Positions 23,604 to 46,079 of a stretch of DNA of 64,000 bases are shown one piece after another. The translations under genes and the position numbers were made by a program. Numbering within the stretch: position 1 is the stretch's first letter; each line of letters opens with the position of its first letter. The notes beneath the pieces are model-generated. The model saw only the letters and a program-made list of their open reading frames with translations. It was not told the DNA's origin and searched no databases. Source of the stretch: Myxococcota bacterium (GTDB taxonomy: Bacteria; Myxococcota_A; UBA9160; SZUA-336); contig CBDFGR010000002.1 in assembly GCA_965247115.1 (NCBI GenBank), positions 96,001-160,000 of the forward strand, read 5' to 3'.

Positions 23604-25160
23604 CTAGCCGGCCTGGCGAAGAGGCGGAGCTTCTGCGTAGGCGGCCTCTCGGCTCAGCAGCTCGATGTCGCGGTCGAGGCGGCCGCACAGCTCGCGGGCG
23701 TAGTCCGAGAAGGCCTTGTGGCAGAGGGCAAAGGAGATGGCGTCCTTGACCCGCGACGGTCGCCGCAGGAGCGTGGCTCCGAGCAGGCGCAGCGTGAAGA
23801 GTCCGCGGCGCAGGCCGTCGCGGAACAGCAGCACCTTCATCACGCGGGTGAAGAGCCCGACGTCGCCGGCGCGGATGGACTGTCCACGGCGGATCTGGGG
23901 GCCGCGGCCGAGGATGAAGGCCAGCGTGCGTTCGCGGTAGTGGCGGAACGTGTAGAGCTGCTCGAGCAGGCGCCGGTAGCCGCGATAGAGCTCGAGGCGC
24001 GTCATGCCCTTGGGCTCGATGTTCGAGAACTCGAACTGGTCGCCCGTGCTCTCGCTGATGAGTCGGCCTTCCTGGACCATGCGCGCGTGCAGCGGCGTCT
24101 CCGGCATGGCCTGCAGCATGCCGGTCATGGACACGGGGATGCGCGCCTCCTGGCTGAAGCGGAGCTGCTCTTCGAAGATGGCCGGATCGTCGTGGTCGAA
24201 ACCGACGATCATCCCGGCCTGCACCTGGAGCCCGTACTCGTGCACCTTGTGGACGGCCTCGACCAGGTCGCCACGGGTGTTCTGGGTCTTGCGCGTCTCT
24301 TCCAGACTTGCGACGCGAGGACTCTCGATCCCGATGAAGACGGTGGTAACGTTGGCTTCGCGCAGCAGGCCGAGCAGCTCCTCGTCTTGGCCGACGTTCA
24401 GCGATACCTCCGTGTTGAAGTCGACGGGGTAGCCGTTCTCTTTCCCCCACACGGCCATCGCGCGCAGTAGCTCCTTGGCGAGCTTCTTGTTCCCGATGAA
24501 GTTGTCGTCAACCAGGAACACCTGCTTCGCGCCCAGCCGATGGCACTCGTGGATCTCCTTCATCATCTGCTCGACGCCCTTCACGCGCGGCCGACGCCCG
24601 TAGACGACGATGATGTCGCAGAACTCGCAGTTGAAGGGACAGCCCCGCGCGAACTGGATCGTGAGCGCGTGGTAGCGATCGACATGGAGCAGATCGAAGC
24701 GCGGCATGGCCGACAGGCTCATGTCGGGCTTCTCTTTGGTCGTGTACTCGGACTTCCAGGTGCCCGCCTCGAAGTCGTTCACGAACTGAGGCCAGGTCTC
24801 CTCGGCCTCGCCGCAGAAGAGGACGTCGCAGTGCTCGCGGAGTTCCTGCGGACACAGCGAGGCGTAGGGCCCGCCGATCGCGACGAAACGGCCCCGCCTC
24901 CGGAACTCGCTTGCGATCTCACGCATGCGCCGCTTGTGAACGATGTAGCCGGTGATTCCAATGACGTCCGCTTCCACATCGAAGTCGATCTCTTCGACGT
25001 TCTCGTCGCAGACAGAGACCTCGTGCCCAGAAGGCGTAAGGCCGGCCACGGTTGGCATCGAGAGGTTCGGGAAGACGCAGCTGCGTCCGAGAGCCGGAAG
25101 GATCGAGTCGTAGGTCCAGAAGCTCTCGGGGTTGCGCGGAGTGATCAGATGAATCTTCAC
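23604..25160 (-). CDS. B12-binding radical SAM protein (class B methylase-like)
   Basis: N-terminal B12-binding domain (IGGPYAS); RGCPFNCEFC; DDNFIGN; IVGFDHD. Confidence 0.92.
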   Translation of the reverse strand: MKIHLITPRNPESFWTYDSILPALGRSCVFPNLSMPTVAGLTPSGHEVSVCDENVEEIDFDVEADVIGITGYIVHKRRMREIASEFRRRGRFVAIGGPYASLCPQELREHCDVLFCGEAEETWPQFVNDFEAGTWKSEYTTKEKPDMSLSAMPRFDLLHVDRYHALTIQFARGCPFNCEFCDIIVVYGRRPRVKGVEQMMKEIHECHRLGAKQVFLVDDNFIGNKKLAKELLRAMAVWGKENGYPVDFNTEVSLNVGQDEELLGLLREANVTTVFIGIESPRVASLEETRKTQNTRGDLVEAVHKVHEYGLQVQAGMIVGFDHDDPAIFEEQLRFSQEARIPVSMTGMLQAMPETPLHARMVQEGRLISESTGDQFEFSNIEPKGMTRLELYRGYRRLLEQLYTFRHYRERTLAFILGRGPQIRRGQSIRAGDVGLFTRVMKVLLFRDGLRRGLFTLRLLGATLLRRPSRVKDAISFALCHKAFSDYARELCGRLDRDIELLSREAAYAEAPPLRQAG

Positions 25161-29194: not shown

Positions 29195-29601
29195 AACCCG
29201 CCTTTGCGGGCCTGCGTCGCGAGGGCCTTCTTGGCGGCGAGAATGGCGTCGTAGACCTGCTGCGACATCTCCCTCCAGAGGGTCTCTGAGCCCGGGTAGA
29301 CTGTCCGCAGCAGGTCCGCCATCACCTTGTTCGCCGCGCCTATCGCGACGGCGTCGTAGTATTTCTCCTCGACGGTCTCGAAGTTGGCGCTCTCGATGTC
29401 GGCCAGGTAGCGCGCCATCGAGGCGGCGATCCCCTCGGCAAAGACCTCGTGGTTGGCGATGATCTCCCGGATCGTCGCCTCCGCGGTTGTGTCCTTCTCG
29501 ACCGTCGCCATGTATCGAACTGGGGTCGGCACCAAGAACCGGATCTTGAGTCCGCCGGACCCTGAACGGGCCTGGAGTCCGCCCATGGCGGAGACTCCCA
29601 T
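29191..29601 (-). CDS. Hypothetical protein
   Basis: Natural amino-acid composition; 4-bp convergent overlap with its neighbour; start uncertain. Confidence 0.55.
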   Translation of the reverse strand: MGVSAMGGLQARSGSGGLKIRFLVPTPVRYMATVEKDTTAEATIREIIANHEVFAEGIAASMARYLADIESANFETVEEKYYDAVAIGAANKVMADLLRTVYPGSETLWREMSQQVYDAILAAKKALATQARKGGF

Positions 29602-29797
29602 TCACGGCATGGTCCATCCCGAGCTCGAGGCGGGGATCCGACGGACTAGTGACCAATCCTCCTCGTCCGCCGTGAGCGCGCTGCAGTGTCGCCCGGCGGC
29701 TGCAGGACAAACCGGACGACGTGTCCGGCACGGCAGGCTTCGCGCCAACATCCTGGTACGCGGCTTGCGTGAGCGGAGTCCCAGCCAGGAGGACGAC

Positions 29798-30037
29798 ATG
29801 CACAGACTGACGATCGCGGTTCTCACCAGCACAGCCCTCGCCGGGTGTGTGGTGGTCCACGCGGAGCTACCCGAAGAGCTGATGCACGACGGAACGGTCC
29901 AGGTCGACGACATTTCGTTCGGCACCGTCTGCACGCACGAGGACCAGGCCTACTCCGCGGGCGCCACGCACTGCATGTCCGCTAGCCGCATGCGCTGCAA
30001 CTCGGACGGCGCCTGGACCGACACCGGCCGCTGCTAG
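29798..30037 (+). CDS. Small Cys-rich lipoprotein (DUF1496-like)
   Basis: AGGAGG RBS; lipobox LAGC; C..ED.AYS.GA..C......C pattern. Confidence 0.6.
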   Translation: MHRLTIAVLTSTALAGCVVVHAELPEELMHDGTVQVDDISFGTVCTHEDQAYSAGATHCMSASRMRCNSDGAWTDTGRC

Positions 30038-30268
30038 CGGGGACCCAAAGGTGATCCCACTTGCGACCCGCGGCGGCTAATCCTCAAGCATTCTTGTCGG
30101 AAACGAAGCAGCGATCGACCAGCTATCTACACTGGAAGATCCTCGTCTACTCCGGGAAGTCGCGGAGCCCCTTCGACCTCCGCATCTGACGCTGGAGCTT
30201 CACTCCGAAGCTCACTCCTTCCGATAGGGCGTAAAGACCCTCGATCCCGATCCAGGGGAAGTTCGAGC

Positions 30269-30925
30269 ATGAAGACTGACATGGACATCTTCCTGCGGAC
30301 ACCCGAACACGAGCCGCTCTTTCCGGGCAAGGTTCGCGCCGCGACCGACAAGGGCTGCGACGCGGTTTTCCAGCGAGGGGCGTTCATCCTGGAGGACGGC
30401 GCGGAAGTGCTCGTGTTCTACGAGATCAACCGCCACTTCATGCAGCAGCCGGTCCGGGTTGTGTCCGTGGTCGAGAAGGGCCGTCCCCATCCTCGAATCC
30501 TCCAGGAGGAGAGAAACGACGGGGAGACGCGCATCAGGCTCGAGCTCGAGACCACCGGAGACCCGATCCCTGCGGAGAAACGCGAGTGCTACCGTGTGTC
30601 CTGCTACTCGGCGAACGTCAAGGCCCAGCTCGGGGAAAATCCCGCGATGTGCGAGGTGCTCGACCTGAGCGCGACCGGCTTCGCCATCTACTCCGAGACT
30701 CAGTACACCATCGGACAGACGCTAGTGGCGACGCTGTACTACTTCGGCAGGCACGTACTCGGGGCGGCCGTGATCGAGAGCTCCGCTGCCTTCCGAAAGA
30801 AGAACCGGTACGGGCTCCGAGCAGTGGACGACGAGCGCCCGAAGGCCACGCTCAAGAAGGACCTGTACCGCATCAACCTGGTAGTTCAACGCGAGCAGTT
30901 GGCCCGGCTCTCCAGCAACCGCTGA
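30269..30925 (+). CDS. PilZ-domain protein
   Basis: EKRECYRV (RxxxR) and DLSATG motifs. Confidence 0.8.
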   Translation: MKTDMDIFLRTPEHEPLFPGKVRAATDKGCDAVFQRGAFILEDGAEVLVFYEINRHFMQQPVRVVSVVEKGRPHPRILQEERNDGETRIRLELETTGDPIPAEKRECYRVSCYSANVKAQLGENPAMCEVLDLSATGFAIYSETQYTIGQTLVATLYYFGRHVLGAAVIESSAAFRKKNRYGLRAVDDERPKATLKKDLYRINLVVQREQLARLSSNR

Positions 30926-31069
30926 CTCGCGAGGGGAGCTGCACCCCCTCCTCCCCCCGCACAGCTCGGCCATGCGAACCCAGAGCTGACGCTGGGAGTC
31001 CACGCGCTACGTCCTCCAAGATGAGGAGGAAGACCTCTCCTTCCTCGACTACGACAGGCGTGCGCGGAC

Positions 31070-31107
31070 TTGACTCTCTATTTTTTCGACAGTGCTGTCG
31101 AAAAAAT
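31070..31107 (+). promoter_or_regulatory. Promoter with overlapping TetR operator palindrome
   Basis: TTGACT at 31070-31075; perfect 13-bp inverted repeat ATTTTTTCGACAG-TG-CTGTCGAAAAAAT (31080-31107) ending just before the TetR ATG. Confidence 0.8.
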
Positions 31108-31701
31108 ATGCCAAAGCTCGTCGATGCCGCCGTGCAGCGGCGCGAGATCTGTGACGTGGCACGACAGGTGTTCGCCAAGCGCGGTCTCAATGGGACAGGG
31201 CTCACCCACGTCGCCGAGGCGGCCGGAATGGGGCGGTCGAGCCTCTACCACTACTTTCCCGACAAAGCGTCTCTGCTGCGCGAGCTGGTGCGCGATCAGT
31301 TGGAAGTCGAAGAAACGCTCTTTCACGCCGCACTCGAAGGCAACGAGTCACCGCTGGATCGCATTCTGGGTCTGATGGAGGCCCAGGTGGAACTCTTCCA
31401 CTCGTGGCGGCACACCGCTTCGCTGACCGTCGAGATGTGGTCGACTCAGTCCTCGCGCTTCCGCCCGTTCTTTCGGTGGATTCGGACGTCCCTCGCGGCT
31501 CTGATCGAAGAGGGACAACAAACGGGCGAGATCGATGCTGCGATCGATGCGTCTCACGCGGCCACGGCCATAGTCGCGCTGATCGACGGGCTGCTGCTAC
31601 AGTACATCGTTGACTCGCGCGCGTTCGACGACCCCGACACCTGGCGCGACACGTTGGTTACGAGCGTTCGCAAGCAGCTTCAGTCCGAGCCGAGTGTATG
31701 A
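31108..31701 (+). CDS. TetR/AcrR-family transcriptional regulator
   Basis: MPKLVD...VAEAAGMGRSSLYHYFPDK HTH; BetI-like C-terminus. Confidence 0.93.
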   Translation: MPKLVDAAVQRREICDVARQVFAKRGLNGTGLTHVAEAAGMGRSSLYHYFPDKASLLRELVRDQLEVEETLFHAALEGNESPLDRILGLMEAQVELFHSWRHTASLTVEMWSTQSSRFRPFFRWIRTSLAALIEEGQQTGEIDAAIDASHAATAIVALIDGLLLQYIVDSRAFDDPDTWRDTLVTSVRKQLQSEPSV

Positions 31702-32357
31702 GTTCACTCGCCCTCATGCGTTGGCTCGAGAACACGCCCGCGCGTTACGACCGAGGCATGCGGGTCATCACGCTCGGGCGCGTCGCCGAGCTGCACGAGG
31801 CTCTCGTCGCCGCGGCGACCCAGAAGGCTGACGCGCGCGTGCTCGAGATCGGCTGCGGCACAGGCGCCGTCACGCTACGCCTGGCCGAGCGGGGCGCGCA
31901 CGGGATCGGACTAGACCAGAACCCGGAGATGCTCGAACGGGCGCGCACGCGGCTGGCTGACGCGGCTATAGAGCGCTTCGAGCTCGTCGAGAAAACGGCG
32001 TCCGAGATCGATACGCTCCCCGAATTCGCGTTCGACGCCGTGGTCGCGGGGTTTAGCCTCTCCGAGATGTCCACTGCCGAGCGGGGCTTTGTGCTGCGCG
32101 AGGCTGCAAAGCGCCTCGCTCCGGACGGCGTGCTGGTAATCGCCGACGAAGTGCTGCCGCAGCGGGCCGCGGCTCGTCTCCTCTACCGCCTGCTCCGTTT
32201 CCCGCAGGCCGCGCTCGGATGGTTGCTCGCGGGCTCACTCTCACGTCCGCTCACGCACCTCTCGAGCGAGATCTCGGATGCCGGCTTCGAAGCGCCACGC
32301 GAGAGGCGCTGGCTTCTCGGGAGCCTCGGGCTGTTCGTCGCGCGGAGGCGGGAGTGA
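31698..32357 (+). CDS. Class I SAM methyltransferase (corrinoid-protein-associated, CpaM-like)
   Basis: VLEIGCGTG; N-terminal LMRWLENTPARYDRGMRVITLGR; coupled to the HgcAB-like gene. Confidence 0.8.
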   Translation: MSSLALMRWLENTPARYDRGMRVITLGRVAELHEALVAAATQKADARVLEIGCGTGAVTLRLAERGAHGIGLDQNPEMLERARTRLADAAIERFELVEKTASEIDTLPEFAFDAVVAGFSLSEMSTAERGFVLREAAKRLAPDGVLVIADEVLPQRAAARLLYRLLRFPQAALGWLLAGSLSRPLTHLSSEISDAGFEAPRERRWLLGSLGLFVARRRE

Positions 32358-33475
32358 TCTCGCTCGGGGACCTTGCCGCCGAAGTCGTGCAGACCGCGTT
32401 GCGGCTTCTGCCCTGGCCAACCGAGCCAGGTCTGCGACGCGCGGGCAACCCGGGTCCTTCGAGTCCCGTCCTGATCACAGGGAACTTCGACCTGACTGTG
32501 CGCCGCCTGATGCGGGCGCTGGAGGGCGTCGACGCCTGGGTTGTCGTCGCCTCGTCGGGCGGCATCAACGTCTGGTGCGCAGCGGCCGGCGGCCACCTCG
32601 GCACACATCAGGTCGTGAGCGCGCTCAAGACGAGCGGGATCGAAGAGCACGTCTCGCACCATCGCGCGATCCTTCCTCAGCTCGCGGCGACGGGCGTGGT
32701 TGCACGCGAGGTGTCGCGCCGCTGCGGCTGGCGAGTGCGCTTCGGACCCGTCCGCGCCGAGGACATCCCGGAGTATCTCGACGCGAAGGCAAAGAAAGTC
32801 GACTCGATGCGGCGCGTGCGCTTCGGCGTCCGCGAGCGGCTCGAGATGGCCTGCACCTTGGGTGTGGCTCCATCCATCGTGGTGGGTGCAGTGAGCCTGT
32901 TCTTCGCGCCGGGGTGGGCCTTGGCGCTCGGCCTCTGGCCGTGGCTCCTGGCTTGCGGTGTGTTCCTCTTCTACGACCGGGTGCGCGGTCCACGCCGGTG
33001 GGTCTTCACGGCCGTAGCGCTTCTGCTCGCGCTCGTCGGAGTCGCGATCGCAGGAGGCGGACCGATCGCTCTCGTGAGCGTCGGCGTCCTGACTGCGGGA
33101 CTCGTGCAGGTCCTGACGTTCGACTACGCGGGCAGCACCCCCCTCGAGGGCGGCAGCCACTTCGAGAGCCGCGATTGGAGCATCTCGCTCGATCTCGAGC
33201 GTTGCGCCGGGGTCTACTCGTGCTGGGAGGTGTGCCCGGAAGCCTGCTTCGAAAAGCGAGAGGACGTGCGCAAAGTCGACCTCTTACACGACGAGCGCTG
33301 TGTACGCTGCGGCGCCTGTGTCGTCCAGTGTCCGCAGGACGCGCTCTTTTTCGAAGCGGAAGACGGGCGCCGCATCGAGCCCGACACCATTCGGCGTTTC
33401 AAGCTCAATCTTCTGGGGTCGCGCTCGGTGGAGGTCAGCGACCCTTCGGAACGCGGGCCAGAGCGCTCCCCGTAG
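32354..33475 (+). CDS. HgcAB-like fusion protein (CdhD-type corrinoid domain + TM helices + ferredoxin)
   Basis: SPVLITGNFDLT, GINVWCAAAGG, ILPQLAATG and RFGPVRAEDIP motifs; TM block; CAGVYSCWEVCP and CVRCGACVVQCP. Confidence 0.88.
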   Translation: MISLGDLAAEVVQTALRLLPWPTEPGLRRAGNPGPSSPVLITGNFDLTVRRLMRALEGVDAWVVVASSGGINVWCAAAGGHLGTHQVVSALKTSGIEEHVSHHRAILPQLAATGVVAREVSRRCGWRVRFGPVRAEDIPEYLDAKAKKVDSMRRVRFGVRERLEMACTLGVAPSIVVGAVSLFFAPGWALALGLWPWLLACGVFLFYDRVRGPRRWVFTAVALLLALVGVAIAGGGPIALVSVGVLTAGLVQVLTFDYAGSTPLEGGSHFESRDWSISLDLERCAGVYSCWEVCPEACFEKREDVRKVDLLHDERCVRCGACVVQCPQDALFFEAEDGRRIEPDTIRRFKLNLLGSRSVEVSDPSERGPERSP

Positions 33476-33505
33476 CGACTTGACGTAACGCCCGCACGAG
33501 AAACC

Positions 33506-33555
33506 TGGAGCGCGAGACCGGACTCGAACCGGCGACAACCACGTTGGCAACGTGG
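33506..33555 (-). repeat. Distal att site: copy of the tRNA-Gly 3' end
   Basis: 50 bp matching 46004-46053 with 1 mismatch. Confidence 0.95.
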
Positions 33556-33687
33556 GCGGATACCTTGAAAACGCTCACGAATCCCGCAGAAGCGTACCGA
33601 GGGATACTAGATAACCCGGAATGGGTGTGCAGAATGGGCGAAAGGTATCAGCCAGTCACGCCAAAGACCCCGGCAACCGCTCTCTTT

Positions 33688-33885
33688 CTATCTGACTGAC
33701 TTGTCAGCCGCTCGGAACGCGGTGGCCTTTCTCTCCTCGACGTCGCCCTCGTCGTCCGCGAACATCTGCGCGAAGGTCGAGTTGAACACCTCCATCCACC
33801 TGCGCTGCTGCGCTTCCGTCAGGCGCTGCTGCACGGACTCGGGGGGGTCGGAGATGCGGCTGAACAGCCCCGTAACCTTTGGCAT
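33688..33885 (-). CDS. ChaB-like small protein
   Basis: SD(P)PESVQQRLTEAQQRRWMEVFNS...EERKATAFRAA resembles the ChaB pattern SDLPESV...Q..Y..AFNS...EETA...AW. Confidence 0.65.
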   Translation of the reverse strand: MPKVTGLFSRISDPPESVQQRLTEAQQRRWMEVFNSTFAQMFADDEGDVEERKATAFRAADKSVR

Positions 33886-33899
33886 CCCGGTCTCAGGGC
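33775..33899. repeat. 125-bp direct repeat, copy 1
   Basis: Identical to 35595-35719 except for 3 substitutions. Confidence 0.95.
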
Positions 33900-33970
33900 A
33901 AAGGGCCTGGGAGCGCGCCGACGTCACACTGACCGCATCGCGGGTGGGGTAGAGGGTTCGTCAGAGGACC

Positions 33971-34246
33971 CTACTCCCGAAGACCCCTGTTCAGGAGGAG
34001 CTTTTCGAACGCCGCCAGCCAGCACTCGTAGTAGGTCGGTGGCTGCGAGCCCTCGGACCGTGCGATCTCGGCGATCAGATGGTCGCGGAACTCGTCCCAC
34101 TCGTACAGCCCTTGCTCGGACAGCGAGACGGCCATCGCGAACAGGCGTCGTTGCCAGCGATCGTGGAAGACGAGTTCGCCGTTGGCGCGGGGTAGCGCAG
34201 CTTCGCCGTCCATGTTCGCGACGCCCGGGTCGGTAGGGCGGTCCAC
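33971..34246 (-). CDS. Nitrile hydratase accessory/activator protein
   Basis: LPRANGELVF..RWQ.RLF...WDEFR..LIAEI...YYECWL.AFEKLL. Confidence 0.88.
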   Translation of the reverse strand: MDRPTDPGVANMDGEAALPRANGELVFHDRWQRRLFAMAVSLSEQGLYEWDEFRDHLIAEIARSEGSQPPTYYECWLAAFEKLLLNRGLRE

Positions 34247-34891
34247 CTAAGCACCTCCCGCAGTCACCATCACCTTGCTCACGCCGATCATCGAGTCGCG
34301 CGTGACCAGCGCCGCGAGCTCCTCCTCGCTCATCTGCTCCGTCCCGCTCGGCCGTTCCGGAAGCACCAGGTACCGGATCTCTGCGCTGCTGTCCCAGACG
34401 CGGACCTCGACGGACTCGTCAAGCTCGAGCCCGAACTCCGCGAGCACGCCGCGTGGGTCGATCACGACTCGAGATCGATACGGCGCGCTCTTGTACCAGT
34501 TGGGCGGAAGCCCAAGGACCGGCCACGGGTAGCACGAGCATAGGGTACACACCACGACGTTGTGAACCGTGGGCGCGTTCTCGACGACGACCATGTGCTC
34601 GCCTTGCAGGCCACCGAAGCCGAGCTCCGCGATGGCGGCCGTGGCGCCCGCGAGCAGTCGATCCTTGTAGGCGAGGTCGACCCACGCCCGCGCGACGACC
34701 TTGGCGCCATTCATGGGTCCTATGTCGGTCTCGTACAGCTCGGCCAGCCGATCGAGCGCGGCGGGCGAGACGAGCCCCTTCGCGACGAGCAGCGCCTCTA
34801 GCTTGCTCACCCGCTCTTCGAGAACCTGCAGCTGTTCCGGCGAGAGCGTGTTCTCGAGCCGCGAATCGGGTCCGTCGTCGTGCGCGCTCAT
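34247..34891 (-). CDS. nthA: Cobalt-type nitrile hydratase alpha subunit
   Basis: [20 protein letters not shown] and [10 protein letters not shown] motifs. Confidence 0.96.
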
Positions 34892-35568
34892 GGCCCTTCC
34901 TCAGTCCCGGACGCCGGCTCGAGGTAATCCTCCCAGAGGTCGAGGAACAGGTAGTCCGCCGCGGCGGTGCCGGGTCCCCAGAGCCCGCGTGCAGCAAAGC
35001 GGACAGAGTAGAGCGGCTGCGGCTGCTCTCCTTCGCCGTGCGCATTCGTGTCGGGATAGACGAACGTCCCGTGGACGCGAGCGATCACCCCACGCTTCCC
35101 GCGCGCATAGCGCGGAAGACGCGTGTGTCCGAACGGATGGATGTTGCGCGCCATCACGAGGTCGCCCACAGCGAAGCGCGGCGTGAGCCTGCCCGTGCTT
35201 CGTTCGAATGGAGCACCTCCCCGAACGACGGCTTCAGCCTGCTCCGGAGGCGCCGGGGTACTCGCGGGCTCACCCGTAGCCTCCGCCACTCCGGTGGCAA
35301 GCTCCTCCGCCAAGACAATCCCATGCTCGACGGCCAGGGTCTCCAGGCCGGCCAGCCAGTGCTCGTAGTACGTCGATGACAGGTAGTGGATCGGGTCCAT
35401 CCGCTCGAGCGAGTGGCGTACGGCGTCGAGCGTATCGATCTGGCCCATCCACGAGTTGAGCAGACCAAAGACACGTCGCTCCCAGGCGGCGTGGAAGACC
35501 GGCTCGTCTTCCTCCCGCTCGATCGCCCCGAAACACGTCATGCCGCCCATGTCGTGGACGCCGTTCAT
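34888..35568 (-). CDS. nthB: Nitrile hydratase beta subunit
   Basis: [27 protein letters not shown] and DLWEDYL motifs. Confidence 0.96.
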
Positions 35569-35747
35569 CGCCGGGAGAGTTTATCAGTGCGCGGGGTCGA
35601 GTTGAACACCTCCATCCACCTGCGCTGCTGCGCTTCCGTCAGGCGCTGCTGCACGGACTCGGGGAGGTCGGAGATGCGGCTGAACAGCCCCGTAACCCTT
35701 GGCATCCCGGTCTCGGGGCTCCAGACGAATCTGTCACGAGTCGACAT
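35565..35747 (-). pseudogene. C-terminally truncated second ChaB-like copy, with its stop overlapping the nthB start
   Basis: SDLPESVQQRL...FNST then an unrelated tail; ATGA overlap at 35565-35568. Confidence 0.65.
35595..35719. repeat. 125-bp direct repeat, copy 2
   Basis: Offset 1820 bp from copy 1. Confidence 0.95.
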
Positions 35748-35839
35748 AGTCGATGATCGCAGATCTGTTCAGATCTCGGTTGGAGCGACGGACGTCGACT
35801 TCAAACCGGTAGCGGAGAACTCCCCGCGACACCCGCAGC

Positions 35840-37245
35840 GGTGACGTCCGGGGTTTGCTGGAAACAAAGGGGGGATGCAACCTCGCGTGAATCAAACAAA
35901 ACCCGCCGGACCTTCCGGCCACGCGAGGAGACATCCCCTTGGCAACGAGAGTACTGAGCAGCGAGAGGACGAGCCAGAAGATCCGTGAGCTGATCCAGGA
36001 GCTGGAGGAAGGAGACGGCCTGGAGGGGCTGCTCCAGCTCGCGATGCGCAAGATCATCGAGGAGGCGCTGGAAGCCGAGGTCAGCGATGTCCTGGGCCGA
36101 GGCCACTACGCGCGGCGACGCGAGGGGCAAAAGGGCTACCGCAATGGATCGCGACCGGCGCGGGTGAAGAGCGCCGAAGGTCCGATCGAGTACCGGGCTC
36201 CGCAGGTGAGCGACACCGACGAACCCTTCCGTTCCGGGATCCGTCCCGAACTCGAGAAGCGGACGCGCGCCCTGGAAGAGCTGGCGGTGGAGATGTACGC
36301 GAGAGGACTCTCGACCCGCGACATCGAGGCCACCTTTCGAGGCGAGGACGGACGGTCCTTGCTTTCGCGGACAGCCGTGAGTGAGGTCACGGAGCAGCTC
36401 TGGGAAGAGTACGAGGCCTTTGCGACCCGGGACCTCTCCGAGTTCAAGCTCCTGTACCTGTTCGTGGATGGCGTCGCCGAGCGCCTGCACACCGGTCAGC
36501 GTCGCGAGATGGTGCTGTGTGCCTGGGGCATCACCGACGAGGGCGAGAAGGTTCTCCTGCACCTGAGTCCGGGCACGAAGGAGGACACGGCGAGTTGCAC
36601 GGCCTTCTTCCAGGACCTCAAACGTCGCGGCCTCGAGGATCCGCTCCTCGTCGTCACGGATGGAGCCCCCGGTCTGATCCGCGCGGTCGAGGAGTGCTTT
36701 CCCCGGGCGGAGCGACAACGCTGTTTGGCCCATCGGATGCGCAACCTCGCCTCCAAGATCTCCGAGCCCGACTGGCCGGAGTTTCGCGCCCACGCCAAGG
36801 CCTGTTACGAGGGACCCTCGCAAGAGGTCGCTCGTCTCCTGCGCGACGACCTGGTCCGACGCTACGAGAAGACGTTACCTACGGCCGTGCAGTGCTTCAT
36901 GGATGATTTTGAAGCCTGCATCGCCCACTTGCGCTTCCCGGTAAAACACCGTCGCGTGATTCGGACGACGAACTTACTCGAGCGCCTCTTCCTCGAAGAG
37001 CGCCGTCGCATGAAGGCGGTCGTACACGCCTTCGGAGAGCGTGCGGTCTTGAAGCTGATGTATGCTGCGTTGATCCGGAGCGCCGAGTCCTGGCGGGGCA
37101 TCGCGATCAGCGCCTTTGAAGCCCGACAGCTCTCTGTGATTCGGGAAGAGCTTGACCAGAACCACGAACGCCGTCAGGCTCCCGCCATCCCGTCACGCGA
37201 AGCCAATCCCCGGTCCCGCGTTTCCAGCAAGAACCGGACGTGACC
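35840..37245 (+). mobile_element. IS256-family insertion sequence
   Basis: 26-bp terminal IRs (22/26 match: GGTGACGTCCGGGGTTTGCTGGAAAC vs GGTCACGTCCGGTTCTTGCTGGAAAC); 8-bp target duplication CCCGCAGC at 35832-35839 and 37246-37253. Confidence 0.95.
35939..37243 (+). CDS. IS256-family (Mutator-type) transposase
   Basis: YRNG, MYARGLSTRD, FVDG, VTDGAPGL, QRCLAH and RTTNLLER motifs. Confidence 0.96.
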   Translation: MATRVLSSERTSQKIRELIQELEEGDGLEGLLQLAMRKIIEEALEAEVSDVLGRGHYARRREGQKGYRNGSRPARVKSAEGPIEYRAPQVSDTDEPFRSGIRPELEKRTRALEELAVEMYARGLSTRDIEATFRGEDGRSLLSRTAVSEVTEQLWEEYEAFATRDLSEFKLLYLFVDGVAERLHTGQRREMVLCAWGITDEGEKVLLHLSPGTKEDTASCTAFFQDLKRRGLEDPLLVVTDGAPGLIRAVEECFPRAERQRCLAHRMRNLASKISEPDWPEFRAHAKACYEGPSQEVARLLRDDLVRRYEKTLPTAVQCFMDDFEACIAHLRFPVKHRRVIRTTNLLERLFLEERRRMKAVVHAFGERAVLKLMYAALIRSAESWRGIAISAFEARQLSVIREELDQNHERRQAPAIPSREANPRSRVSSKNRT

Positions 37246-37352
37246 CCCGCAGCTGCCGGGCTACCGCCGCCAGGGGTCTCCCCTGGGCCACAGCCCCAAG
37301 GTCCGCTACTTCGACGCGCTCTACGGAGATCGTCACTACCGGGGATCACCAG

Positions 37353-37562
37353 CGCCGCCAGGTCGGCCACACCACCGTCCGCACGATCACCGAGGTCTAC
37401 GACTCCTTTATCGACGCCGCCCGTTGGCCCGACGAAGAGGAGCGCCGCACCGTTGCCGAACTCTACGGCTGGGGCGTCAGCTCTGAAGATGGAGTGGAAA
37501 TCTGGAGTGCCCCCCGTGTAAACCCTGGTGCGCCCGGACAGCATACGACCCTGAAGGGCTGA
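37353..37562 (+). pseudogene. Tyrosine integrase C-terminal remnant
   Basis: QVGHTTVRTITEVYDSFIDAARWPDEEE...LYGW aligns with TLGHANPRMILEKYDAFLGPESWPEADE...IYGW of the 44666 integrase and sits in the same position relative to an att. Confidence 0.8.
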
Positions 37563-37606
37563 CTTCGTAGATCGTGCGCAACTGGTTGATTCAGTGCACG
37601 AATCGT

Positions 37607-37651
37607 TGGAGCACGAGACCGGACTCGAACCGGCGACAACCACGTTGGCAA
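37607..37651 (-). repeat. Inner att site: copy of the tRNA-Gly 3' end
   Basis: 45 bp identical to 46004-46048. Confidence 0.95.
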
Positions 37652-37712
37652 TGTGATGCCGACCCGCGTAAGTGCACGGGAAGCCCGGAGCTGCGGCCTC
37701 ACCTGACCCAGG

Positions 37713-37752
37713 GGGTGCCACATGGGTGCCCCGGGGCTCCCACGTGGCACCC
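37713..37752. promoter_or_regulatory. Candidate integrase arm-type sites
   Basis: CCCAYGTGGCACCC occurs inverted (37713-37726) and direct (within 37734-37752), and again within 45919-45937. Confidence 0.65.
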
Positions 37753-37836
37753 ACCCCGATGAGAGCGCTGCGCCGAACACGCACGGTCGGCGGTTGGTAC
37801 ACCCGTCGATCGGGCCGATTCCCCACAGGAGAAACC

Positions 37837-37965
37837 ATGAGCCCCCGCACCCGCAAGCGCGTTGGGAGCGGCGTCTGCCCCTGCTGTAGCCGGACCTTTC
37901 AGCAGCTCGCCCGGCACATGAAGGCGAAGCATCCCGCCTACACGGAAGTGACGGGCGGGTCTTAG
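37837..37965 (+). CDS. 42-aa C2H2 zinc-finger-like phage protein (possibly a remnant)
   Basis: AGGAG RBS; GVCPCCSRTFQQLARHMKAKHP. Confidence 0.6.
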   Translation: MSPRTRKRVGSGVCPCCSRTFQQLARHMKAKHPAYTEVTGGS

Positions 37966-37972
37966 ACCCCGA

Positions 37973-38966
37973 GTGCTGGTCCGTGGCGACGCTCGAGCGA
38001 TTCCTCTGGCCGACCAGGTGGCCGACTGCGTCGTGACCAGCCCTCCGTACTGGGGCCTGCGGACCTACGAGCTCGACGGCCAGATCGGCCTCGAGGAGAC
38101 GCCCGCTGAGTACCTCGAGGAGCTCCTGGCCGTGTTCCGGGAGGTACACCGCGTCCTGAAGCCAGAGGGGACGCTCTGGCTCAACCTGGGCGACTGCTAC
38201 GTCTCTGCCCCGAGCAGCGGCCACGGCTGGGACAAGAGCACGCTGACGCTGCCGAAGAGCCGCGAGCGCAAGATCCAGCACGCGCAGAGGGCCTCGCGGC
38301 TCAAGGGCCGGAAGTTCGAGGGCCTCAAGCCAAAGGACATGGTCGGGATGCCCTGGACGGTCGCGCTCGCGCTGCGCAACGAGGGCTGGTATCTGCGGCG
38401 GGACATCATCTGGCACAAGCTATCGCCAATGCCCGAGGCAGTGAAAGATCGCCCAACGTCTGCGCACGAGTACCTGTTCCTGCTGGCCAAGTCTCGCCGC
38501 TACTACTACGACGCAGAGGCGATCAAAAGAGCCAACCGTCACCGCCAGCCGTGTGTCTCCCCGCCCGGTCAACCCAAAGGCCAAGGTTCCAGCTGGTTGG
38601 GACACGCGATCAGGTTCCCACCGTCACCTCACAGGGCGCTATCCGGGCCCAAAGCAGAACGCCGGAACTGCCGCGCGCATCGCCAACTCTGTCGAGACTC
38701 GAAGTGCGCGCACTGTCTGGAGCCTGGCCACAGAGCCCTACCACGGCGCGCACATGGCCGTCTTCCCCACCGAGCTCGCGAAGCGCTGCATCCTCGCGGG
38801 CTGTCCGGCCGGCGGGCTTGTGTTCGATCCATTCGTCGGATCGGGGACGACTGTGAAGGTCGCGATCGAGCTCGGCCGCCGAGGCCTCGGGATGGACCTC
38901 AAGCACGACTACCTGCACGACCAGGCGCGGGAGCGGATCAAGACAACGGTGGGGATGGGGTGGTGA
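37973..38966 (+). pseudogene. N4/N6 DNA methyltransferase with a +1 frameshift
   Basis: TSPPY before the shift and H.AVFP / DPFVGSGTT after it; removing one A from AAAA at 38525-38528 gives continuous IKEPTVTASRVSPR. Confidence 0.9.
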
Positions 38967-39000
38967 CGGTCATCCATCCCGGCGTTCCTGAGGAGGGAAA

Positions 39001-39324
39001 GTGAAGCGAACCTTGCTCGCCCTCGTGCTCGTCGCGTGCGGTCCGGATCTGCCAGAGCTTCCGGAGCCAGCACCCAAGAAGTTTGAGCTTACCAACGAGC
39101 GAAAGTGCGTCGCGATCCAGATGTGCGGGCGCCTCTGTGAGAAACGTAAGGGCATGGAGATGCTGGAGTTCCGTGGTGACATCGGCATCTCCTGGGCGTG
39201 TCACTGCAACGGCTACGGGCTGTTCCACTTCAAGGACCCCGAGCACATCATCTTTCCCGATGGCCTGACTGTCGCTGACTGTGCGCCGACGGGTGCCCAC
39301 AGCGTGGGTCAGGAGGAGAAGTGA
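39001..39324 (+). CDS. Hypothetical Cys-rich lipoprotein
   Basis: GGAGG RBS; lipobox LVAC; overlaps the next gene. Confidence 0.65.
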   Translation: MKRTLLALVLVACGPDLPELPEPAPKKFELTNERKCVAIQMCGRLCEKRKGMEMLEFRGDIGISWACHCNGYGLFHFKDPEHIIFPDGLTVADCAPTGAHSVGQEEK

Positions 39325-39668
39325 TGACAGATCAGGAGCCCACACCGGAAGAGGCGCAATTGCAGACGGGCAGCCAACCCGGGCAGTCAATCGGACATTC
39401 CATGACGACGAACGGCGACCCCAACGATCTACGCTACGAACGCGAGACACGGCTGCTCTCCCGAGAGGAACTGGCCGAGCGGGCTGGTGTCCACTGGTCC
39501 ACCGTCCGCGCCATCGAGCGCGGCTGGCATCGACCCCAGCTCCGCACCCGCCGATGGATCTTGGGGGCACTCGACATCCCTGTCGAAGAGCATCGGCGTG
39601 TCTGCGGACCTACGCGAAGCGATGGTCCAATGACGGGCATCCATCCCGCTTGTCGAGACAATGGCTGA
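39321..39668 (+). CDS. XRE/Cro-like HTH protein
   Basis: LSREELAERAGVHWSTVRAIERG. Confidence 0.8.
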   Translation: MMTDQEPTPEEAQLQTGSQPGQSIGHSMTTNGDPNDLRYERETRLLSREELAERAGVHWSTVRAIERGWHRPQLRTRRWILGALDIPVEEHRRVCGPTRSDGPMTGIHPACRDNG

Positions 39669-40053
39669 TCTCCGCGAGGTCATGCGGTGGATGGCGGGTA
39701 GGGATACGGGCATGTCGTCGATGGCGCTCGCTCGATACATGGCCGGGATTGATCCCGACCGTGAGGACCCCGACGCCTGCGCCTACCCTCTTGATCCCGA
39801 CGACTTGGGCCGGTGCCTGCGACTCCTCGAGAGGTTCCCAGAGTGGAAGGAACGGCTACCCGAGATGGAGGCGCTTGATCCAGTCTGGGGCGCCTTGGCG
39901 GAGCACTGGTACGAACTCGCTGCTCTCTACCACGAGGAGGCTCGATTCCGGATGGCTCCCAAGTGCTACAAGCGAATGAGGGAGCTGATCGATCCGCTCC
40001 GGTACGTTCGACCGACGTTCATCCATCCCGTCAGTCAAGAAGGCGAACGATGA
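39661..40053 (+). CDS. Conserved phage-type hypothetical protein
   Basis: DTGMSS...YP.DPDDLGRC.RLL..FPEW; coupled to genes on both sides. Confidence 0.7.
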   Translation: MADLREVMRWMAGRDTGMSSMALARYMAGIDPDREDPDACAYPLDPDDLGRCLRLLERFPEWKERLPEMEALDPVWGALAEHWYELAALYHEEARFRMAPKCYKRMRELIDPLRYVRPTFIHPVSQEGER

Positions 40054-41006
40054 ACGAGCCGCTCAATGTCTATGACCCGGTTCGGGAGAAATCTGGAAGC
40101 CTCGAAAGTCTGCTTGAGGCCAACCAGAGACATCGGGATAGCCAGTGGCCGGAGCCGTTCGATAAGACGACACACACGCTCCACCTGGGCGACGCGAGAA
40201 AGCTGGATCAGATAGAAGCGGGCTCCATACATCTGATTGTCACATCCCCGCCATACTGGACGTTGAAAAAGTATCCCGCTGCCAAAGACCAGCTTGGCGA
40301 TATAGAAGATTACGAGCAGTTTCTGGTGTCTCTAGATCGCGTATGGCGCGAGTGTGAGCGCGTGTTGGTGCCAGGTGGGAGGATCTGCTGCGTGGTCGGC
40401 GACGTGTGTATGTCGAGGAAAAAGAACGGGAAACACTACGTCGTGCCGTTACATGCGGATATTCAGGTCCGATCCCGCGCGCTGGGTCTGGACTGTCTTA
40501 CGCCGATCTTCTGGCACAAGATCTCTAACGGCCTCCAAGAGGCGAGCGGAAACGGGGCGCGCTACTACGGAAAGCCGTACCAGCCCGGCGGCGTGATTAA
40601 GAATGATGTGGAATACATTCTGTTCTTCAGGAAGGGAGCAGGTTACCGCTCGCCGTCCGCCGAGCAACAGGCACTCTCGATGCTGACCAAAGCGGAGGTT
40701 CGGAGCTGGTTCAAGTCGGCGTGGACGGACATTAAAGGGGCTTCGACGCGGAACGGACACCCGGCGCCCTATCCCACGGAAGTTGCTGAGCGCCTGATCC
40801 GCATGTTTTCGTTCGCTGGGGATACTGTACTAGACCCATTTGTCGGGACCTGTTCAACCCTGATCGCTGCGATGCACATGGGCCGGAATTCCATAGGAAT
40901 CGAGATTGAGCCAGCTTACCTTGAACTTGCCAAATACCGTCTTGAAGGTGAACTCGAAACACATCGCTTCAACGTAAACACCACAGCCTTGCTGATCGGA
41001 CCGTAG
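40050..41006 (+). CDS. N4/N6 DNA methyltransferase (intact, orphan)
   Basis: VTSPPYW, HPAPYP and VLDPFVGT motifs; ATGA overlap with the upstream gene; visibly lower GC than the backbone. Confidence 0.92.
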   Translation: MNEPLNVYDPVREKSGSLESLLEANQRHRDSQWPEPFDKTTHTLHLGDARKLDQIEAGSIHLIVTSPPYWTLKKYPAAKDQLGDIEDYEQFLVSLDRVWRECERVLVPGGRICCVVGDVCMSRKKNGKHYVVPLHADIQVRSRALGLDCLTPIFWHKISNGLQEASGNGARYYGKPYQPGGVIKNDVEYILFFRKGAGYRSPSAEQQALSMLTKAEVRSWFKSAWTDIKGASTRNGHPAPYPTEVAERLIRMFSFAGDTVLDPFVGTCSTLIAAMHMGRNSIGIEIEPAYLELAKYRLEGELETHRFNVNTTALLIGP

Positions 41007-44665: not shown

Positions 44666-45961
44666 ATGCAGTCTGAGGAGTGGGGGGTGCCCAAGGCACG
44701 ACTCTGGACGGATGACCGGGGACGGCTGAACGTCGTCGGCCAAGGCGTCCTCATGCGGGCTGGAACACGGGTCAGACGCAAGCGCCGCATGATCGTCCCC
44801 AAGGGGGATCCCGAGCTCGGCGCCGAGATCGTCAGGCAGCTCAACGTCCAGTTCGCGATGGGCGACGCCTCCTGGCTGGAGGGCCAAACGGATCCGGAAC
44901 CCAAACCGGTTCGACCGAGCACGCTGTCGGAGTGGGCGCCGCTGTGGCTGCAATCGTGCGCGCCTCCCGTGATCGGGCAGCGCACCTGGTACAACTACAG
45001 TATCCACGTGCGCGACCTGGTCGAGCGCCTCGGACAGAGATCGCTCGGCTCGATCGACACGGCCGAGGTCCTGCACCTCCGGAGCGCGCTTGAGTCGTCG
45101 AGGGGCAAGCGCGGGGCGCCACTCTCGCGTACTACCGTCAAGGACCGTCTCGGTGTGCTGGCCATGATGCTGCGTGACGCGAGGATCGAGGGCCTGATCG
45201 CCACGAACCCTCTCGCGGATCCCCTACCCCGTCGACGAACGAAGCGGGGAACCGGAACGCAGCGGGTCCGGCGCGTGCAGTTCCTCCCGTTTGAGGCCAG
45301 CGAGCTCGCTGCGCTTCTTCGAGTACTCGGAGCACCCGCCGCGCCTGTCCAGAAGGTCTACTACCCCCCGACGGAGATGCTGCTCCTCACCGGACTCCGG
45401 TGGGGCGAGGTCGCCGGCGTTCTCTGGGATGACATCTCGTGGAAGGGCCGGCGCGTGAACATCCGACGCGCGGTCGTGCGCGGACAGGACGATCCGACCG
45501 AACCGACGAAAACCGGCGCGCAGTGGGAGATCGAACTTCGCGCTCCGCTCGAGCATCTGCTCCAAACGCAGCGAACGCGAAGCTATCTCGGCCGCGTCGA
45601 TGGTCGCGTGTTCCCGGGGCGTCGTGGCTCCGTGATGAGCTACCACGAATGGCGGAAGCGCGGGTGGATCCCAGCGCTCCGCGCAGCCAAGGTCTCCCCG
45701 CGTGAGGGCGACGCGCAGAAGGCGCTGCGCAAGTCATACGTCACAGCGGCCCTCATCTGCGGCGAGAACGCGAAGCGGATCTCAGAGACACTCGGCCACG
45801 CGAACCCGCGCATGATCCTCGAGAAGTACGACGCCTTCCTCGGCCCAGAGTCATGGCCTGAGGCCGACGAGGTTGCGATGCTGAGGCAGATCTACGGGTG
45901 GGGAAACGTCCGACCCGAGGGCTCCCATGTGGCACCCCGAGGATCCCATCGTCGGAGCTGA
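44666..45961 (+). CDS. Tyrosine recombinase / phage-type integrase
   Basis: TGLRWGE, PTKT, KALR, LGHA and KY catalytic pattern; ends 42 bp from the tRNA 3' end. Confidence 0.92.
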   Translation: MQSEEWGVPKARLWTDDRGRLNVVGQGVLMRAGTRVRRKRRMIVPKGDPELGAEIVRQLNVQFAMGDASWLEGQTDPEPKPVRPSTLSEWAPLWLQSCAPPVIGQRTWYNYSIHVRDLVERLGQRSLGSIDTAEVLHLRSALESSRGKRGAPLSRTTVKDRLGVLAMMLRDARIEGLIATNPLADPLPRRRTKRGTGTQRVRRVQFLPFEASELAALLRVLGAPAAPVQKVYYPPTEMLLLTGLRWGEVAGVLWDDISWKGRRVNIRRAVVRGQDDPTEPTKTGAQWEIELRAPLEHLLQTQRTRSYLGRVDGRVFPGRRGSVMSYHEWRKRGWIPALRAAKVSPREGDAQKALRKSYVTAALICGENAKRISETLGHANPRMILEKYDAFLGPESWPEADEVAMLRQIYGWGNVRPEGSHVAPRGSHRRS

Positions 45962-46003
45962 AACTCGCAACGAGCGCTAACTACGCGGATAACAATGGAA
46001 AAC

Positions 46004-46079
46004 TGGAGCACGAGACCGGACTCGAACCGGCGACAACCACGTTGGCAACGTGGAGCTCTACCAACTGAGCTACTCGTGC
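46004..46079 (-). tRNA. tRNA-Gly (GCC)
   Basis: 76-nt cloverleaf GCACGAGTAGCTCAGTTGGTAGAGC...TTGCCAA...GGTTCGAGTCC...GTGCTCCA. Confidence 0.97.

Follow-up and report, generated by a model that had tools for sequence, protein, structure and literature searches.

Among the closest known systems to the cassette analysed here are HgcA and HgcB, which combine a CFeSP-type corrinoid domain bearing a cap-helix Cys with a membrane anchor and a ferredoxin. Methylation of Co(I)-HgcAB by SAM, with a Cys as ligand of the resulting methyl-cobalt state, is described in PMC11588087, whilst mercury methylation needs Cys73 and the terminal Cys (PMC7305189). Why microbes keep hgcAB is a standing question, and its sister lineage is the 'fused HgcAB' clade, in print since 2015 (PMC4646819), whose three-domain architecture and sister position to HgcA, as given in PMC4646819, PMC5893877 and 10.1101/2022.11.21.517362, are those of the fusion protein described below. 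The taxa also overlap (Heimdallarchaeota, Aminicenantes, Chloroflexi), and the likeness to the P. furiosus and M. methylutens proteins is one of taxon alone. The passages on the fused clade in PMC4646819 name no partner methyltransferase, a word with 0 occurrences in the available text of that paper. Both CpaM (NF043040) and the HgcAB-like fusion (NF043039) are named in NCBIfam together with their association, and the cassette is thus already catalogued; with the fused clade also in print, an earlier note on this DNA went too far in calling the locus the best candidate novel system. Our literature search, with subscription papers and bioRxiv supplements outside it, returned nothing on the CpaM-fusion pair, and no biochemical data on any family member were found in the searches.

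In the window (the whole stretch of 64,000 nucleotides that was analysed), three plus-strand genes occupy positions 31108–33475: a TetR-family regulator of 197 amino acids with a BetI-type C-terminal domain (P0001, 31108..31701), CpaM, a corrinoid protein-associated class I SAM methyltransferase of 219 amino acids (P0002, 31698..32357), and the HgcAB-like fusion, which has a GTG start and joins a corrinoid domain, membrane helices and a ferredoxin in 373 amino acids (P0003, 32354..33475). CpaM scored 259 bits against NF043040 (cut-off 180) and the fusion 388.2 bits against NF043039 (cut-off 285), covering positions 3–349 of the 350 in the profile; judged by sequence, the cassette is a stand-alone unit of this catalogued family, with the same gene order and adjacency and nothing essential different. 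What sets this subclade apart from the family at large is its TetR, whose likely operator is conserved, and the missing second Cys of the first ferredoxin motif. The TetR and CpaM genes overlap by ATGA and the CpaM and fusion genes by GTGA, the fusion start overlapping the CpaM stop, and the overlaps of three genes behind a perfect palindrome were described correctly in the earlier note. No match to the locus was found in a plasmid collection, nor to Rfam across 29500–38000, and no RNA data set was listed among the sequencing runs searched.

The likely TetR operator, a candidate site at 31079..31108, is an inverted repeat with the core TCGACA-N4-TGTCGA and T/A flanks; its 14-nt arms (31079–31092 and 31095–31108) are 100% complementary around a 2-nt spacer, and it ends on the first letter of the TetR start codon, ATG. 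We extracted 26 TetR orthologues from 80 related loci, and the core (≤150 nt upstream, up to two mismatches) was found in all 25 testable orthologue loci, 19 of them having it exactly. The window holds two copies where 0.02 would be expected by chance, the second at 39571 lying inside an ORF and without T/A flanks, and the exact core occurs five times genome-wide, so that the core alone is not unique. Scored with a matrix built from the relatives' operators, the 31079–31108 site is the highest in the 5.17-Mb genome (36.4 vs. 26.0 for the next), and the scan gave no second convincing operator that would indicate a wider regulon. A −35-like hexamer of a likely promoter, TTGACT, lies at 31070..31075 on the plus strand, and TTGAC is similarly spaced before the operator core in 11 of 23 relatives; a consensus promoter scan returned no site in this region. 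The −10 element would fall within the operator, and because the putative promoter is so near the ATG, a leaderless or near-leaderless mRNA is suggested. The regulator matched Pfam TetR_N (E 6e-15) and TetR_C_6 (E 2e-9), no NCBIfam TetR model above its cut-off, and TtgR and KstR2, both too distant to name a ligand; at any one column of the TetR alignment, at most 9 of 24 sequences show a Cys. From conservation and position the operator assignment is likely, and TetR is likely a repressor of its own cassette, which a ligand may induce.

The AlphaFold model of CpaM (pLDDT 93) has CysG and Coq5 as its nearest folds (TM about 0.76–0.78), and the class I fold is common to UbiE/MenG/Coq5 and ArsM. 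CpaM nevertheless differs from both groups, scoring 62.8 bits against the UbiE/MenG model TIGR01934 (cut-off 158.35) and 31–51 bits against ArsM-type models, far below their cut-offs. Conserved arsenic-binding cysteines are the mark of ArsM arsenite methyltransferases, and CpaM is without such substrate cysteines, having a single Cys, Cys53, within its SAM-binding motif. The CbiT model gave 34.5 bits against a cut-off of 78.

In the fusion, the cap-helix motif NVWCAAAGG (32567..32593, plus strand) contains Cys75, the equivalent of HgcA Cys93 and the predicted cobalt ligand, which is invariant in all 64 aligned sequences, and the cap-helix Cys that the earlier note had read in GINVWCAAAGG is thus retained; model confidence is also at its lowest in this helix (pLDDT <50 at residues 76–79). 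The membrane domain (32828..33121, plus strand) comprises four long helices in the AlphaFold model at residues 159–256, hydrophobic by hydropathy, in keeping with the transmembrane helices proposed previously; the C-terminal membrane domain of HgcA is described with five helices (PMC7305189) against the four predicted here, and BLAST gave no alignment in this part. The ferredoxin domain (33179..33358, plus strand; residues about 276–335) has one complete CxxCxxCxxxCP motif and a first motif, C284-x2-V287-x2-C290, in which the second Cys is missing. Position 287 is non-Cys in 60 of the 64 aligned sequences and in all 120 nearest homologues, and a [4Fe-4S] cluster plus a [3Fe-4S] or three-Cys site is predicted. 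As the earlier note had it, the fused ferredoxin is without the terminal Cys residues of HgcB: no Cys follows C326, nor does one in 62 of the 64 aligned sequences. Both Val287 and the missing equivalent of HgcB Cys73 had been overlooked there. Homologues of the fusion are numerous (3265 matches among 8000 candidates scored); by fold it was closest to 9a0b, a computed model of HgcAB, and to CFeSP structures, and a PDB sequence search matched CFeSP and ferredoxins, with no HgcA chain.

Set against HgcA and HgcB themselves, the fusion falls outside both families, scoring 167.8 bits vs. 275 for the HgcA model NF040863 (control L016, 358) and 47.5 bits vs. 99 for the HgcB model NF040864 (control 109.7). 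The high-stringency HgcA motif is N[V/I]WC[A/S][A/G/S]GK (PMC10087281), whereas the fusion reads NVWCAAAG-G, with G at the K position in an ungapped alignment to HgcA. An N-terminal CU/CC motif is a further HgcA feature (10.1101/2022.07.06.499078), and the first Cys of the fusion is residue 75. Of the two CxxCxxCxxxCP motifs of HgcB, the first has its second Cys replaced by Val287; aligned to the control HgcB, the fusion has neither Cys73 nor the C-terminal Cys, and CVRCGA stands in place of C(M/I)ECGA. A quick tree of 87 corrinoid-domain rows, with one long-branch warning and its careful search unfinished, split 6 HgcA-type rows from 81 fusions (SH-aLRT 94, branch 1.08). The true HgcA of a related genome shares 38% identity with the fusion over 160 residues, and true hgcAB pairs of the same phylum keep Cys73 and the terminal Cys, with no CpaM in the stretches fetched; the cassette has a dedicated methyltransferase which HgcA and HgcB have not, and TetR here where ArsR is there. 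Such genes pass loose hgcA filters and in surveys should not count as mercury methylators.

A more distant likeness is to AcsC/CdhE CFeSP, which has the corrinoid-domain fold in common with the fusion (rmsd about 2.5 Å over 130 columns) and, with its methyltransferase, the same principle, in which a methyltransferase loads a corrinoid. The likeness is confined to the C-terminal domain, however; the donor in the cassette has a SAM-type Rossmann fold, the fusion is membrane-anchored, and against AcsC it scored 79.7 bits vs. 306, over profile positions 321–448 only. The fusion is the sole CdhD-family match in the host genome, which gave no Wood-Ljungdahl context.

The earlier note had named a lack of conserved linkage of the genes as one refutation of its proposal, but this linkage is near-absolute, the proteins often being fused. 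Of 80 related loci from bacteria and archaea, 76 have CpaM directly upstream of the fusion; three exceptions are cut by a contig end, and in the fourth (L069), without CpaM, the fusion match starts at residue 60. Among 61 related genomes, the 15 in which CpaM passes its cut-off are the very ones in which the fusion does, and in each the two genes sit side by side on a single contig. Of 49 long CpaM matches, 48 are single chains with the corrinoid domain C-terminal to CpaM, 23 with a fused ferredoxin and 25 without. For chains of the latter kind a separate ferredoxin gene comes next in 71 of 80 metagenome loci, the other nine ending ≤164 nt from the contig end. Since the ferredoxin is either fused or encoded by a separate gene that follows, none of the four parts is lost in any of the three gene arrangements. 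That the ferredoxin might be dispensable, an idea raised by the 25 fusions without one, was ruled out by the ferredoxin gene next door.

The surroundings were far less constant. All-against-all ORF clustering of 80 genome loci yielded no specific families beyond TetR, CpaM and the fusion; the remaining recurrent clusters, labelled from reading the sequences rather than by profile scan, sat at scattered positions (short-chain dehydrogenase-like in 12, enoyl-CoA hydratase-like in 9 and acyl-CoA dehydrogenase-like in 8 loci). Ten further loci (of 20) read by eye had nothing in common, no neighbour in the 80 genome loci named an acceptor and metal-resistance context did not recur among the loci, nor was a biosynthetic-cluster context seen in them. 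Besides the cassette, the host genome has genes for further B12 users (a MetH-type B12 cap domain and the methylmalonyl-CoA mutase family) and for a BtuB-like receptor that scores below its cut-off. Searches of the genome returned neither CobS nor any CdhD-family gene apart from the fusion, and MerA had no match above cut-off. The host appears to salvage B12, and it looks oxygen-respiring from its two heme-copper oxidase subunits I.

We give an even chance to a pathway in which the methyl group would run from SAM through CpaM to a Cys-ligated cobalamin and on to a non-mercury acceptor, with the ferredoxin as electron supply. The cassette would likely be repressed by its own TetR; CpaM, predicted to bind SAM, would likely pass the methyl group to the cobalamin of its membrane-anchored partner, both cofactor binding and the direction of methyl flow being predictions, the loaded corrinoid protein would methylate an acceptor that is probably organic, and reduction of the cobalt back to Co(I) would fall to the ferredoxin. 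On the model of HgcA, the methyl-cobalt state would have the invariant Cys as its ligand and the methyl would leave as a radical or anion equivalent, so that the acceptor would be an electrophile beyond an ordinary SAM methyltransferase. Mercury is probably not that acceptor, with Cys73 and the terminal Cys absent. Several points weigh against this pathway: the nearest folds of the CpaM model are small-molecule methyltransferases, we know of no class I methyltransferase that methylates protein-bound cobalt, and Co(I) chemistry is oxygen-sensitive, yet the host encodes heme-copper oxidases. Purified HgcAB, moreover, is described as methylated by SAM without a separate methyltransferase (PMC11588087), which leaves no obvious need for a dedicated donor enzyme. 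The strict co-occurrence of CpaM with the corrinoid protein and their repeated fusion nevertheless fit direct hand-over better than two separable steps, and we consider it unlikely that CpaM methylates a small molecule, in the manner of Coq5 or CysG, whilst the corrinoid/Fe-S protein performs a separate reductive step such as dehalogenation. That arrangement would suit the folds nearest to CpaM and the CCl4 dechlorination by HgcAB reported in a 2026 preprint (10.64898/2026.04.26.720869), and right after the module, 22 of 80 split-ferredoxin loci have a gene resembling an F420H2-dependent quinone reductase; these 22, however, have further synteny in common and look like close kin rather than independent cases, and the family does not recur in the 80 genome loci.

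CpaM might alternatively only re-prime the cofactor, with SAM and a ferredoxin electron rescuing Co(II) as in methionine synthase reactivation, and another methyl donor or reaction in the cycle. Oxidative inactivation would be frequent in a host that looks oxygen-respiring, reductive Co(II) reactivation is described as general for cobalamin methyltransferases (PMC11588087) and the cluster Cys lost in this lineage's ferredoxin may suit occasional electron supply, but none of the locus sets shows linkage to a second donor or to an acceptor methyltransferase, and CpaM is kept also where the ferredoxin has all eight Cys (116 of 120 L119-type proteins; CpaM adjacent in L117–L119), which makes this distinctly unlikely. 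Less probable still is that a metal or metalloid (As, Sb, Se, Te, Bi, or, given an outside thiol carrier, Hg) is methylated to detoxify or volatilise it. HgcAB homology and the retained Cys speak for it, an arsM gene lies directly downstream in one of 80 loci (L043) and, as Podar 2015 (PMC4646819) has it, P. furiosus without methylmercury does not prove its protein incapable. The fusion nonetheless lacks Cys73, the terminal Cys and the N-terminal CC/CU motif, ArsR and Acr3 queries matched only the true-hgcAB loci L120 and L121, with no match in any fusion locus searched, and P. furiosus and M. methylutens, whose fused HgcAB proteins may belong to NF043039, made no methylmercury (PMC4646819 among the sources). 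Of the route sketched in the earlier note, from SAM by methyltransferase and corrinoid to an acceptor, the linkage and fusions thus uphold the core as our preferred reading, whilst its metal(loid) option is weakened because metal-handling cysteines are absent, CpaM having none outside its SAM motif, most TetR orthologues are without a conserved Cys and ars context does not recur. There are class I methyltransferases that act on corrinoids (CbiT, BzaC) and the host appears to salvage B12, but that CpaM methylates the partner-held corrinoid at the ring or lower ligand rather than at cobalt is very improbable, given the low CbiT score and no cobalamin synthesis or transport family recurrent among the neighbours.

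A substrate for the module would bear on hgcAB retention and extend B12 chemistry by a new kind of reaction. With thousands of homologues known, this copy adds little by itself; its use in practice lies in the conserved operator, through which ligands can be screened with TetR alone. More tentatively, and with considerable doubt, the module may be a four-part membrane-bound B12 enzyme that converts the methyl cation of SAM to the radical or anion form and so methylates an organic electrophile, even in oxygen-respiring bacteria by way of the three-Cys Fe-S site, keeping an older job of the HgcAB lineage. Were this true, the TetR/operator pair would be a ready sensor for finding the substrate.

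The three plus-strand genes were recovered by ORF calling, in agreement with the earlier note: TetR at 31108–31701, a class I methyltransferase (CpaM) at 31698–32357 and a 373-residue HgcAB-like fusion with a GTG start at 32354–33475, joined by ATGA and GTGA overlaps. Repeat search and domain scan likewise recovered its perfect palindrome and the corrinoid, membrane-helix and ferredoxin architecture, the fusion carrying a CdhD-type corrinoid domain at residues 20–141 with the motif NVWCAAAGG, four predicted membrane helices and a ferredoxin domain. The note's rating of this operon as the best candidate novel system is not supported, as NCBIfam already lists both enzymes by name and the fused clade is already in print. 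The model NF043040 (‘corrinoid protein-associated methyltransferase CpaM’) has a cut-off of 180 and gave CpaM 259 bits; NF043039 (‘HgcAB-like fusion protein’), with a cut-off of 285, gave the fusion 388 bits. The fusion fell below the thresholds of the HgcA (168 vs. 275) and HgcB (47.5 vs. 99) models, both of which the positive control passed (L016, an authentic hgcA-hgcB pair taken from a related genome), and in a quick tree of corrinoid-domain rows, which carried a long-branch warning, it lay outside six HgcA-type rows that split from 81 fusions (SH-aLRT 94). Its closest named homologues are in Myxococcota genomes; 3265 of 8000 candidates scored matched the family, and in a sample of 151 genomes of the phylum 16 passed the fusion cut-off. 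Judged by sequence, the window copy is a further member of a catalogued module, with a well-defined candidate operator. No publication dealing with the pairing of CpaM and the fusion, or with any substrate, came up in our literature search.

The gene linkage proved to be conserved. Of 574 confirmed loci (genome scan covering 45 of 64 parts) the best 80 were examined, a set biased to close relatives which extends to Chloroflexota, Acidobacteriota, Thermodesulfobacteriota and several groups of archaea. In this set CpaM lay directly upstream of the fusion in 76 loci, with a gap of ≤200 nt in 72 (one partial at a contig edge) and of 210–1219 nt in four; three of the remaining loci were cut by a contig end and one had no CpaM. 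Among 61 related genomes, kin that are not independent, the same 15 passed both cut-offs, with the genes adjacent in each. CpaM was not found in the stretches fetched for six HgcA-type loci (L016, L120–L124). Of the matches to longer CpaM proteins, 48 of 49 were CpaM-corrinoid single chains. A fused ferredoxin is present in 23 of these and lacking in 25; P0124, among the 23, also has a TetR C-terminal piece and may be a sequencing artefact. Directly behind the ferredoxin-less type stood a small ferredoxin gene in 71 of 80 metagenome loci, the other nine terminating ≤164 nt from the contig end. Methyltransferase, corrinoid domain, membrane anchor and ferredoxin are thus kept together in three gene arrangements, our best evidence that the parts work as one machine, and the natural fusions and linkage suggest that CpaM and the fusion may be in direct contact. 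In one lineage (L131–L210) CpaM, corrinoid domain and membrane part form a single chain, and an 83-residue ferredoxin is encoded separately; this type scores below the NF043039 cut-off (protein P0143, 263.5 vs. 285) and would therefore receive a CpaM-only annotation. An F420H2-dependent quinone-reductase-like gene follows the module in 22 of these loci.

Of the 80 genome loci, 26 have an orthologue of the window's TetR ahead of CpaM and five more have a second TetR group there, whilst a third lies directly upstream in 20 of the 80 metagenome loci; the latter two groups share only 22–24% identity with the window's TetR where alignable, making separate recruitment plausible. The inverted repeat (31079–31108; perfect 14-nt arms, 2-nt spacer) overlaps the TetR start codon by one base. 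All 25 orthologue loci that could be tested (one was too short) carry its core, TCGACA-N4-TGTCGA, upstream at ≤2 mismatches, and 19 carry it exactly. With a matrix built from the relatives' operators the window site scored 36.4, the highest in the genome (runner-up 26.0), so the predicted TetR regulon seems limited to this operon. A sigma-70 promoter scan matched no site before TetR; TTGACT lies at 31070, ahead of the repeat, and 11 of 23 relatives examined have TTGAC at a comparable distance ahead of the core, a position from which the candidate operator likely covers the −10 region. A PilZ-domain protein (30269–30925, +) adjoins the promoter region upstream, an adjacency not conserved in relatives. 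About 6 kb upstream on the opposite strand is a B12-binding radical SAM protein with DUF4070 (23604–25160, −), a family that did not recur beside related modules in the neighbour survey of relatives' loci.

The first ferredoxin motif of the fusion, C-x2-V-x2-C, lacks its second Cys, which the earlier note had overlooked. All 120 nearest homologues lack this Cys, as do 68 of 71 split ferredoxins; another subfamily keeps it (116 of 120 proteins), and so do 22 of the 23 single chains with ferredoxin. From the established chemistry of ferredoxins we predict a [3Fe-4S] cluster or a three-Cys [4Fe-4S] site here.

The fusion's role is probably not mercury methylation. According to published work, HgcB cannot do without Cys73 and needs one or more terminal Cys for full activity (PMC7305189), most HgcA have an N-terminal CU or CC motif (10.1101/2022.07.06.499078) and the stringent HgcA cap motif terminates in GK (PMC10087281). 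Aligned to HgcA and HgcB, the fusion shares the cap-helix Cys of HgcA but has no GK, N-terminal CU/CC, Cys73 equivalent or terminal Cys, and beyond the second ferredoxin motif 62 of 64 aligned family members lack any Cys. Two cultured organisms with fused hgcAB, whose proteins may belong to NF043039, formed no methylmercury (PMC4646819, PMC5893877), although Podar cautions that its absence does not prove incapacity (PMC4646819). Taxa listed in Lin 2023 and its supplement (PMC10083202) and from Gionfriddo 2020 (PMC7573106) overlap with our family matches. McDaniel 2020 (PMC7438021) describes ars genes beside true hgcAB; ArsR and Acr3 queries from a true hgcAB locus matched nothing in the fusion loci searched. 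Methylation of metal(loid)s is accordingly a reading we consider improbable, the shared cap Cys notwithstanding. An arsenite methyltransferase gene (arsM) lies directly downstream of the module at L043:9199–10026, the sole case in 80 loci. Genuine hgcA-hgcB pairs (L016 in genome G032, L120–L123) occur in the host's class and phylum, that of L121 flanked by ArsR-like and Acr3-like genes. A divergent HgcA-like gene at L124:4407–6300 is extended by a membrane part at its N-terminus; a MarR gene lies upstream of it, and its ferredoxin, a separate one, does not end in the CC pair.

Purified HgcAB is brought to Co(I) by way of its clusters, and a methyl cation from SAM then yields Cys-ligated methyl-cobalt, release as methyl radical or anion being a proposal (PMC11588087). 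As the fusion keeps the cap Cys and its predicted fold resembles both the HgcAB model and CFeSP (a corrinoid iron-sulfur protein), CpaM would be the subunit that supplies SAM, and the fusion would pass the methyl group on to an electrophilic acceptor, a reading to which we give about an even chance. Weak pointers to an organic, perhaps lipophilic, acceptor are the membrane anchor, the resemblance of CpaM's fold to Coq5 and a TetR that has no conserved Cys. Against this relay, HgcAB takes the SAM methyl without a separate methyltransferase, CpaM resembles small-molecule methyltransferases and no neighbour gene points to a substrate. That resemblance would suit CpaM methylating a compound directly whilst the corrinoid protein performs a separate reductive step, for which HgcAB dechlorination of CCl4 is reported (10.64898/2026.04.26.720869); set against the conserved parts of the relay, we find this unlikely, and slightly less likely still that CpaM only re-primes the cofactor. 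Cobamide tailoring is very improbable. The host genome (98% complete) has genes for B12 users and for a BtuB-like receptor; neither CobS nor a further CdhD-family gene was found in it. It also encodes two heme-copper oxidase subunits I.

The operon terminates ~25 nt outside the outermost of two partial copies of the tRNA-Gly(GCC) 3′ half (33500–33555 and 37601–37656, from repeat comparison), which with the full tRNA-Gly(GCC) (46004–46079, −, from tRNA search; marked stretch 45998–46079) indicate two tandem integrated elements. The ORF at 44666–45961 looks, by eye, like a tyrosine integrase. The smaller element holds nitrile hydratase beta, alpha and accessory genes (33971–35568, −; over NCBIfam cut-offs), flanked by a 125-nt direct repeat (33775–33899 and 35595–35719, 98%) that overlaps a ChaB-like ORF. 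Also within the elements, by eye, are an IS256-like transposase (35939–37243) and two DNA-methyltransferase-like ORFs (37973–39004 and 39963–41006), all on the plus strand.
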